This document shows positions 38,802-40,310 of a DNA stretch of 59,615 nucleotides, in pieces. Origin of the DNA: an uncultured Pseudomonadota bacterium (lineage in GTDB: Bacteria > Babelota > Babeliae > Babelales > RVW-14); the NCBI GenBank assembly GCA_964354855.1, contig CAYHBO010000005.1, forward strand, positions 1,514 through 61,128, in the 5' to 3' direction. A program made the position numbers and the translations under genes. Numbering within the stretch: the first letter of the stretch is position 1; every line of letters starts with the position of its first letter. The notes beneath the pieces are model-generated. The model was not told where the DNA came from and ran no database searches. It saw only the letters and a program-made list of their open reading frames with translations.

Positions 38802-40310
38802 ATGATACTTAGAAAATATGTTATTTATATTTTTATGTTGCTGTCGTTGCTGGGCAATAGCGGGAATAATGGGCTTTTGAAAGCAGCCTCCCCGGAGAAA
38901 ACTTTCCTTGAGAAAATGGCTGAACGAGCTGAAATAGAAGCTCGAAATAGGGCTGAAAATCATAGAATGCGCATGGAATATAATCAACAGGATCTTGAGC
39001 GTTTACACCGGAGCGGGGCGGTAAGGGCTGACCATCCTGATCATATGAGATATCAAACATTGATGCGAAATCAGGGCCAAGCTGAGAAGAGACTAGATGA
39101 TTGGCATAATCTTGAACTGGATGTTAATAAAACCATTTTGGGGATTGCCTCAGATCATTGGCATACTGAGATTGAAAAGGGTAAAATAGAAGCACAGCGA
39201 AAAACCGAGGTTGGGAAAGCCTTTGGCGCATCACTTGCAGCTCAAGAAGGCATAACGGAACGGTCTAAGACGATGTGGGAAAAACTAACTGATCGTAAAA
39301 ATATTATGTTGTGGTCGGCGGCGCTTATTGGTATTCCGGTAACCATTTATGCTTGTAAACTTGGGTTAGACTATGCAAGTTCAAAGTGGGGTAAACCAGC
39401 GTTAGTAAAAGAAACGTCACGTAAAAGTCTCAAAGAAAGCGTGATGGGTTGGTTTTCAAAGAAGAAAGAAGTAAAAGTAAATTTTGATGATATTGTTCTT
39501 GCTCCAGAGCTAGACAAGGATGCAAGAGCTTTTGCTGAGCGACTTAAAAAGCAGCAACAGTATAAGGCGCCGTTCCAAAATCTTCTGTTGTATGGTCCTC
39601 CTGGTACAGGAAAAACGGAGTTTGCTAAGAAAGTTGCTTACTACTCAGGGATGGATTATGCCCTTATTGATGGTGGAAGTTTTGGTCAGTTCAAAAAAGG
39701 GACTGGGGTTACTCAAATAAATAAACTCTTTGATTGGGCCGAAAAATCTCCACGAGGAGTTGTTGTATTCATTGATGAAATTGATGCTATTGCTCCAGAT
39801 AGGGGTACTATAACTGAAAGCGATGACATGAATAGTCTTAATACTTTGATTGCTCGTTCAGGAAGTTTATCGAGAAAAGTGGTACTTCTTGGAGCAACTA
39901 ATCGTAGAGAATCACTTGATTCTGCGATGCGTAAGCGACTAGGACGGTCAATGTGTTTTGGATTGCCAGAAGCTCCTGAGCGTGCAAAAATTCTGAGAAA
40001 GAAAATTGAGATGCATATTGAGCAATTTGAATATAAGTATGATAAAAATAAACCAGCGATTAAATTGTCATGCGCATCAGATGTTACCACTGATTCCTTT
40101 ATGACTGAGATGGCTGGTATGATGAAGCAATTCTCAGGCCGTGATATTGAAAAAGCGGTTATTGATATGCAATCAGAAGTATTAGAAACCGATGCTAAAA
40201 TGCTTACGAAAGATATCGTTAAAACGATTATCGTGCGATGGATTTCTATTGTTGCTGAGGATCAAAAAATAACAGCGGCACAAGATCGAAAAAATGCGGC
40301 TCGAGGATAA
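38802..40310 (+). CDS. ATAD3-like membrane-anchored AAA+ ATPase
   Basis: Signal peptide, coiled coil, TM helix, [41 protein letters not shown], SGRDI. Confidence 0.8.
   Translation: [502 protein letters not shown]

Follow-up and report, generated by a model that had tools for sequence, protein, structure and literature searches.

ATAD3 is essential in animals and in Plasmodium, and mutations in it are found in human mitochondrial disease, while its molecular mechanism is still unsettled; to our knowledge, it has been treated as a purely eukaryotic protein. The gene at 38802-40310 raises the question of whether a bacterium can carry a member of this lineage and, if so, by what route it was acquired and what it does there. 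The window, the whole stretch of 59,615 nucleotides that we analysed, has a uniform GC content of ~38% and belongs to the genome of a Dependentiae (TM6) parasite (1.59 Mb in 71 contigs, 92% complete). An initial annotation, which rightly pointed to Dependentiae, had called the product a bacterial homolog of mitochondrial ATAD3 and had offered two readings, a native envelope protein or a host-derived effector acting on mitochondria. In the searchable papers we found no link between ATAD3 and Dependentiae or any other bacterium, and a study of Plasmodium ATAD3 describes itself, to its authors' knowledge, as the first characterization in a unicellular system; some bacterial members have already been labelled 'ATAD3A/B' by the IMG pipeline. 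What is new, as read from the sequences, is a phylum-wide, multi-copy bacterial ATAD3 family together with a conserved upstream partner gene.

Protein layout and kinship with eukaryotic ATAD3

The open reading frame has the extent and length first annotated, and its product contains all three of the protein strings quoted at that time. Its parts are as follows.

38802..40310, + strand: ATAD3-like AAA ATPase gene, 502 aa (ORF list, Pfam, similarity search, module scores and maximum-likelihood tree)
38802..38858, + strand: N-terminal hydrophobic leader, aa 1-19, interpreted as a signal or anchor of the Sec type (hydropathy)
38904..39233, + strand: helical ectodomain, aa 35-144, fast-evolving and not homologous to eukaryotic ATAD3_N (AF2, hhalign and ortholog identities)
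39300..39356, + strand: single transmembrane (TM) helix, aa 167-185 (hydropathy, AF2 and alignment)
39390..39422, + strand: juxtamembrane motif of 11 residues, aa 197-207, common to eukaryotic ATAD3 and fixed 65-75 aa before Walker A
39582..39962, + strand: AAA core, aa 261-387 (Pfam and alignment), with Walker A GPPGTGKT (aa 265-272), pore loop QFKKG (aa 293-297, aromatic F294), Walker B FIDEID (D325/E326), sensor-1 TN (aa 366-367) and a shortened second region of homology (SRH) with R379
40131..40142, + strand: sensor-2 FSGR, aa 444-447 (signature comparison)

The signal peptide and coiled coil proposed earlier correspond to the hydrophobic leader and to long helices, on the basis of hydropathy, composition and predicted helices, and the proposed single TM helix and AAA domain are likewise present. 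Hydropathy revealed no other strongly hydrophobic stretch beyond the leader and the TM helix. The AF2 model, built with 14 homologs, places long helices at aa 35-70 and 81-144 and the TM helix at aa 165-196, and its AAA fold is confident (pLDDT about 90). Most members of the ATAD3-like family have an equivalent N-terminal leader by hydropathy, and the catalytic residues are invariant across the bacterial family in the alignment.

The product might be a generic bacterial AAA ATPase whose likeness to ATAD3 is convergent or reflects the shared classical-AAA core, and the general-purpose databases do point in this direction. Pfam recognised PF00004 (AAA) alone (aa 261-387, E = 1.5e-25), NCBIfam returned sub-threshold FtsH, CDC48 and PAN matches and nothing else, and a PDB search ranked Cdc48/p97 at the top, with no ATAD3 entry among the matches. 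PF12037 (ATAD3_N/DUF3523), the profile with which the initial annotation had proposed to check its claim, gave no match to the product even at E <= 10. However, the PDB and NCBIfam ranking reflects two-domain score inflation and the lack of an ATAD3 model or structure in these collections; the whole-protein PDB score of Cdc48 is raised by a match to each of two domains (72 + 57 bits).

Direct comparison with the two families named by these searches revealed clear differences. Like FtsH, the product is a classical-clade AAA protein with a predicted inner-membrane anchor, periplasmic N-terminal part and cytoplasmic ATPase. Unlike FtsH, it lacks the M41 protease domain (Pfam detected no peptidase domain), has one TM helix after the leader, reaches 92 bits against the TIGR01241 cut-off of 600 with the AAA part alone matched, and stands clearly apart in the tree. 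FtsH-like outgroups carry a canonical RPGRFD SRH and an SGA sensor-2, whereas the product has the ATAD3-type versions. It shares the classical AAA fold with Cdc48/p97/VAT (35-37% identity over about 145 residues per domain), but those proteins are soluble, with an N-domain, two tandem AAA domains and canonical pore loops and SRH, whereas the product has a single Walker A and a single AAA domain and scores 81 bits against the TIGR01243 cut-off of 803.

In a search of 5.8e9 proteins, the best named matches to the product were eukaryotic ATAD3 proteins from Phytophthora, Babesia and Saprolegnia (E = 1e-43 to 1e-45), which align over 63% of the query at about 34% identity, a likeness well above chance; ranking ahead of them were four close orthologs and a surrounding set of bacterial relatives. 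For a comparison at the level of the module, every protein was trimmed to 270 aa around Walker A. ATAD3 then scored 118-152 bits against the product, interleaved with distant bacterial paralogs, or about two-fold the bits of the non-ATAD3 proteins, namely the best generic AAA (82 bits), CDC48-D1 (76) and the genome's own paralog L004 (65). In a maximum-likelihood tree of 80 sequences (LG+C20+F+G4), the bacterial family and ATAD3 formed one clade with support of 100/99 and a stem of 1.0 substitutions per site, from which the L004-type paralog, CDC48 and other bacterial AAA proteins were excluded and within which eukaryotic ATAD3 was monophyletic at 98/97. The same clade was recovered with support of 100 in a tree of 174 sequences.

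Discrete characters agree with the tree. Eleven signature columns are common to the bacterial family and ATAD3, being present in at least 75% of both groups and at most 15% of the outgroups, and the shared derived characters of the AAA module comprise DYA (285-287), W312, A327, TG (353-354) and LFxWA. Two indels are also common to both: a one-residue insertion at 316 and a two-residue deletion in the SRH that removes RPG. The sensor-2 arginine (FSGR) is found in 100% of ATAD3 and of bacterial family sequences, compared with 0% of outgroups. A further feature common to both groups lies beyond the AAA fold: the TM helix is immediately followed by the motif G[KRM]PxLVRE[ST]SR, which stands 65-75 residues ahead of Walker A (68 aa in the product). 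By a strict regular expression, TM helix and motif were found together in 26 of the 36 bacterial and 10 of the 14 eukaryotic sequences. The motifs first quoted for this gene recur in verified eukaryotic ATAD3, in strings of 12 protein letters in Phytophthora, 29 in Babesia and 11 in the sequence P0030.

Because module scores, tree, shared indels, sensor-2 arginine and extra-domain motif all tie the protein to ATAD3 specifically, we consider the generic-AAA reading extremely improbable. The ATAD3 affinity first proposed is thus borne out, with neither the best named matches nor the tree placement falling among generic AAA families. Taken together, these comparisons show, at the level of sequence, that the bacterial family is the specific sister group of eukaryotic mitochondrial ATAD3.

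The kinship does not extend over the whole protein. The likeness outside the AAA core claimed by the initial annotation holds for the TM helix and the juxtamembrane motif and fails for the region before the TM helix. We scanned ten proteins, eight of them members of the bacterial family, with PF12037 and, among these eight, obtained matches for P0009 (29 bits, profile positions 148-265) and, below the cut-off, P0010 (22 bits) only; both cover the C-terminal, TM-proximal part of the model alone. Alignment of the bacterial and ATAD3 pre-TM regions by hhalign gave E = 0.42, against 0.38 for the reversed control, that is, no detectable homology. In a wider set, the eukaryote-type N-domain was found in 41 sequences and in none of 101 others, and no sequence matched both N-terminal profiles. 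The aromatic pore-loop residue (QF[KD]xG) is present in 28 of 36 bacterial members but in none of 14 ATAD3 sequences, which have GPLG there. Nor does the gene have a nuclear-encoded mitochondrial location, since it lies on a bacterial contig and the family is also found in single-contig Dependentiae genomes.

Spread of the bacterial family and direction of transfer

At E <= 1e-30, the ATAD3-like family is present in 89 of 261 genomes of the phylum and missing from the other 172, and 33 of 34 other genomes of the window's own taxonomic family carry such a gene. Copies often number 2-5 per genome, with a maximum of five. A second paralog in the window's genome (C13:29647-31248, 534 aa) is very divergent, keeps the layout of the product and has no partner gene. 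Among the matches listed, the named GTDB genomes with similarity reaching past the AAA core are three Dependentiae/TM6/Babeliales MAGs and one MAG labelled Pseudomonadota (1.5 Mb, 33% GC, four ATAD3-like copies); the label of the latter is doubtful, and the genome fits a Dependentiae-like one. Among these matches, the prokaryotic ATAD3-like family thus appears essentially confined to Dependentiae. Viruses were also considered as carriers, and this candidate was rejected: the viral contigs show generic AAA cores only. The bacterial neighbours of 38802-40310 include enolase and tRNAs. From its spread, copy number, uniform GC and bacterial neighbours, the gene is most likely a resident, native bacterial gene.

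The sister relationship offers a concrete test of the origin of ATAD3, that is, of host-to-parasite transfer at the base of Babeliales versus transfer from bacterium to eukaryote. The bacterial sequences were paraphyletic in the tree of 80 sequences, although the AU test did not reject their monophyly (p = 0.24). A quick tree of 174 sequences placed a fully supported eukaryotic clade within a bacterial ladder; when the 119 bacterial-type sequences of this set were forced into one clade, the tree improved by 95 lnL units (p-AU 0.998). Since the constrained one-clade tree scores better, we take the nesting to be a search artefact and set aside a nested position of the eukaryotic sequences inside the bacterial radiation as unsupported. 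The bacterial and eukaryotic clades are best read as sisters.

Our eukaryotic sample is drawn from SAR, comprising stramenopiles (oomycetes), alveolates and one rhizarian; searches to widen it named only Cryptosporidium and Nonionella, and a donor may therefore lie in another supergroup. Within this frame, we hold the case for an ancient transfer from a eukaryote to Dependentiae to be evenly balanced, and transfer from Dependentiae to a eukaryote to be possible though rather doubtful. A tentative form of the latter, in which we place limited confidence, is that ATAD3 descends from a Dependentiae-type envelope AAA machine. The eukaryotic stem lineage would have received it from an intracellular bacterium other than the alphaproteobacterial ancestor of mitochondria, and it would later have gained a new N-domain and a new place in the mitochondrial inner membrane. 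If this were true, the operon of partner and ATPase would preserve the ancestral mode of action of ATAD3.

The upstream partner gene and the two-gene unit

The AAA gene directly follows a second gene on the same strand, and the two are set off from their neighbours by the following elements.

35839-37131: enolase gene, upstream of the partner gene (ORF list)
37238..37265, + strand: terminator-like hairpin and T-run (8-pair stem at 37238-37258, then TTTTTTT), separating enolase from the two-gene unit
37275..38777, + strand: partner gene, 500-aa orphan protein (ORF list; homologs directly upstream of the AAA gene)
38790..38794, + strand: AAAGG RBS-like motif (read from the sequence), 7 nt before the AAA start codon
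40320..40353, no strand assigned: stable hairpin between convergent genes (folding: -19 kcal/mol, z = -3.83, 0 of 200 shuffles as stable)

The spacer between partner and AAA gene is 24 bp in the window. This short spacer with its RBS and the hairpins on both flanks suggest a two-gene operon, which the hairpin at 40320..40353 likely closes as a bidirectional terminator.

The partner protein has a hydrophobic segment at aa 17-35, is largely helical apart from a beta-hairpin at about aa 89-136, and has a weakly hydrophobic C-terminal helix at aa 471-489. Pfam gave no match to its own sequence or to 23 members of its family, and neither sequence nor profile searches detected a relative in the PDB. 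Its AF2 model (pLDDT 66) has no fold neighbour in the PDB by Foldseek, with a best E of 0.13. Faint Foldseek matches resembling alpha-pore-forming toxins were not significant and were set aside.

A word-seeded search of 5.8e9 proteins retrieved 3 close orthologs of the partner and no other homologs. Three unrelated metagenomic loci each have, immediately before the AAA gene and on its strand, a gene for a 480-590 aa protein without a Pfam domain; homology of these proteins to the product of 37275-38777 was detected at E = 5e-13 and 9e-5. Profile searches located a partner directly upstream of the AAA gene at 23 of the first 28 places and at 18 of 20 loci examined afterwards, including tandem units of the order partner-AAA-partner-AAA. 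Across the phylum, 55 of 70 partner ORFs immediately precede an AAA match on the same strand, 41 of the 60 best AAA matches come with a detectable partner, and the AAA gene is present in 51 of the 56 genomes that have a partner. By homology and gene order, these data show that the partner and the AAA gene form a conserved two-gene unit. Between close orthologs, the ectodomain (41-45% identity) and the partner (41-50%) diverge at similar levels, compared with 60-66% for the AAA module and 69-76% for the TM/juxtamembrane segment; across the whole family, identity of the partner falls to 15-20%. With its conserved partner, and expressible in E. coli, the bacterial operon would offer a genetically simple model for ATAD3.

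A possible envelope machine

Eukaryotic ATAD3 (ATAD3A/B; PF12037 + PF00004) has the same order of parts as the product, namely a helical N-part, one TM helix and the AAA domain. Its AAA domain faces the matrix, and its N-part faces the intermembrane space and the outer membrane (PMC10419812, PMC13249166). The topology predicted for the bacterial protein is equivalent, with the periplasm in place of the intermembrane space and the cytoplasm in place of the matrix. Unlike ATAD3, the bacterial family has a predicted Sec-type leader in place of mitochondrial import, an operon with a bacterial-only partner, multiple copies in many genomes, and Ala-rich tails in about half of its members.

We favour, with moderate confidence, a model in which the ATAD3-sister ATPase and its partner form an ATP-driven trans-envelope tether or remodeller that resides in the bacterial inner membrane. 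Hydropathy predicts Sec-type leaders on both proteins, and the leader and stop-transfer helix of the AAA protein would place it in the inner membrane of the bacterium with the helical ectodomain in the periplasm and the ATPase ring in the cytoplasm. Because ectodomain and partner evolve fast at matching rates and have been duplicated together, binding between the ectodomain and the exported partner, on the outer side of the cytoplasmic membrane, is probable. The hexameric ring, in which all catalytic residues are intact and the aromatic pore-loop residue is kept, would hydrolyse ATP in the cytoplasm and pass force through the TM helices, so that an assembly containing the partner might be held, moved or remodelled in the periplasm or at the outer membrane. 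Any role given to the partner within this complex is a guess, since it has no recognisable fold or family. Such a complex would be a candidate for a machine of the envelope or the host interface in these protist parasites, whose phylum is poorly understood.

The partner could instead be the client of the ATPase, a secreted or surface host-interaction protein that is held, matured or released by the periplasmic ectodomain. Its very fast evolution, its few close homologs in the protein search, its N-terminal hydrophobic leader and the joint duplication of cognate pairs are all in keeping with a cargo, and the aromatic pore-loop residue suits substrate threading. However, the ring and its pore would be cytoplasmic, whereas the Sec-exported partner would lie across the membrane, and we saw no secretion-system genes beside the pair in the loci examined. 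The present evidence fits a client and a subunit alike, and we consider a client role unlikely. The same low probability attaches to the joint claim that the pair serves as a dedicated device, driven by ATP, for the delivery or quality control of a fast-evolving surface factor.

The second of the two original options, an exported effector, would make the protein a host-derived mimic of ATAD3 that leaves the bacterium, becomes embedded in the membranes of host mitochondria and recruits or reshapes these organelles. Its membership of the ATAD3 lineage is compatible with this, as are the multi-copy family and the fast-evolving N-terminal part, which resemble many effector families. Dependentiae are obligate intracellular parasites, among which Chromulinavorax wraps itself in a host mitochondrion (PMC6561590). 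Yet the paper on Chromulinavorax mentions no gene of this kind, and the sole candidate that it names for the remodelling of host mitochondria is a mitofilin-like CDS (PMC6561590). The leader and stop-transfer TM helix predict retention in the bacterial inner membrane, the ATAD3 N-domain, which faces the outer membrane in eukaryotes, is not conserved, and the gene is tightly coupled to a partner found in bacteria only. The family is also missing, at the threshold given above, from 172 of the 261 genomes of the phylum. It is thus quite unlikely that the protein is an exported effector; the TM anchor, the non-conserved N-domain, the bacterial partner gene and the tails described below lend more support to a native envelope protein.

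Some observations count against the envelope model. Host-directed factors in Dependentiae, too, typically evolve fast, expand into paralogs and carry signal peptides, which 44% of the CDS of Chromulinavorax have (PMC6561590), and the second paralog of the window's genome has no partner.

The C-termini of the bacterial family are unusual in composition. Ala-rich, ssrA-like tails occur in about half of its members, and 11 of 24 members end in -AA, compared with 3 of 97 neighbouring ORFs (p = 5e-7); in the window's genome, this ending is found in 8 of 1218 ORFs. The tmRNA tags of Dependentiae end in A-x-A. The Ala-rich tails suggest turnover by cytoplasmic proteases, and in the envelope model the cytoplasmic C-terminus of the members that carry them may be under proteolytic control; exposure to bacterial cytoplasmic proteases would also speak against export to the host.

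The product of 38802-40310 itself ends in NAARG, not in -AA. This tail bears a likeness, in a single case, to the GAAYG end of the tmRNA tag of the window's genome.

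C-terminal tails and tmRNA tags

Ala-rich C-termini, for example TAAAA, NAAA, VAPAA and APAAA, occur in about half of the bacterial ATAD3-like proteins. Comparison of the tails across loci L110-L129 and L211-L229 revealed a terminal -AA in 11 of 24 ATAD3-like family members; among neighbouring ORFs the figure was 3 of 97. The Ala-rich tails look like the termini of tmRNA tags from Dependentiae, which end in A-x-A. The tmRNA of the window's own genome, which was located outside the window with aragorn, encodes an unusual tag, ANSFEGAAYG. The window protein (C-terminus at 40296-40310) and its three closest orthologs share a final G, their tails reading NAARG, HAIAG, DRARG and GKKKG.

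Multiplication of the family

We observed tandem arrangements in two different genomes. In one of them, a single-contig genome of 1,118,422 bp, two units of the partner (the orphan gene directly upstream of the AAA gene) followed by the AAA gene lie in succession (L124, G007:C1:306000-318000), and in the other three AAA copies and two partners form a tandem array (L125, G142:C3:34000-47000). The genome of the window harbours a second, highly divergent family member outside the window:

C13:29647-31248 (= L210:4148-5749), divergent ATAD3-like paralog, 534 aa

This paralog has a degenerate motif, VQPTVVSETSK, together with the Walker A sequence GKPGLGKT; no partner gene lies upstream of it, and it clusters with the protein P0022 in the tree. 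At the P0022 locus, a 169-aa ORF just 5' of the partner (L028:3498-4022, +) gave a weak match to the AAA-family profile (E = 2e-10), presumably owing to its helical N-terminal part.

Among the matches listed, the sole carrier without a Dependentiae label is L033 (CAZMQG010000005.1), from a MAG designated 'uncultured Pseudomonadota' (1.5 Mb, 33% GC) with four family copies across four contigs. This label is probably wrong; otherwise the MAG would represent a convergent small-genome endosymbiont.

Other AAA genes and window neighbours

The window's genome also contains an inverted pair of AAA genes, separated by ~0.5 kb:

C1:3221-3781 (+) and C1:4244-4816 (-), AAA gene pair (L002, L005)

Their 253-aa AAA modules are identical (same rows in the tree), and together with L006 they constitute a separate small AAA clade grouping with the L004-type paralog, an AAA of this genome that falls outside the ATAD3-like clade. 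The top whole-protein matches of the exhaustive search include giant proteins (P0121-P0123, P0125-P0131), which are 1400-2100 aa long and carry 5-6 AAA modules in tandem.

Two further features were annotated in the window:

40351-40950 (-), SAP-domain gene, 199 aa (PF02037, E = 7e-8, plus DUF6434)
47888-48193 (-), three clustered tRNA genes (Rfam, 61-70 bits)

The former lies downstream of, and convergent with, the ATAD3-like gene; the SAP domain is known above all from eukaryotes, as a motif that binds chromatin/DNA.
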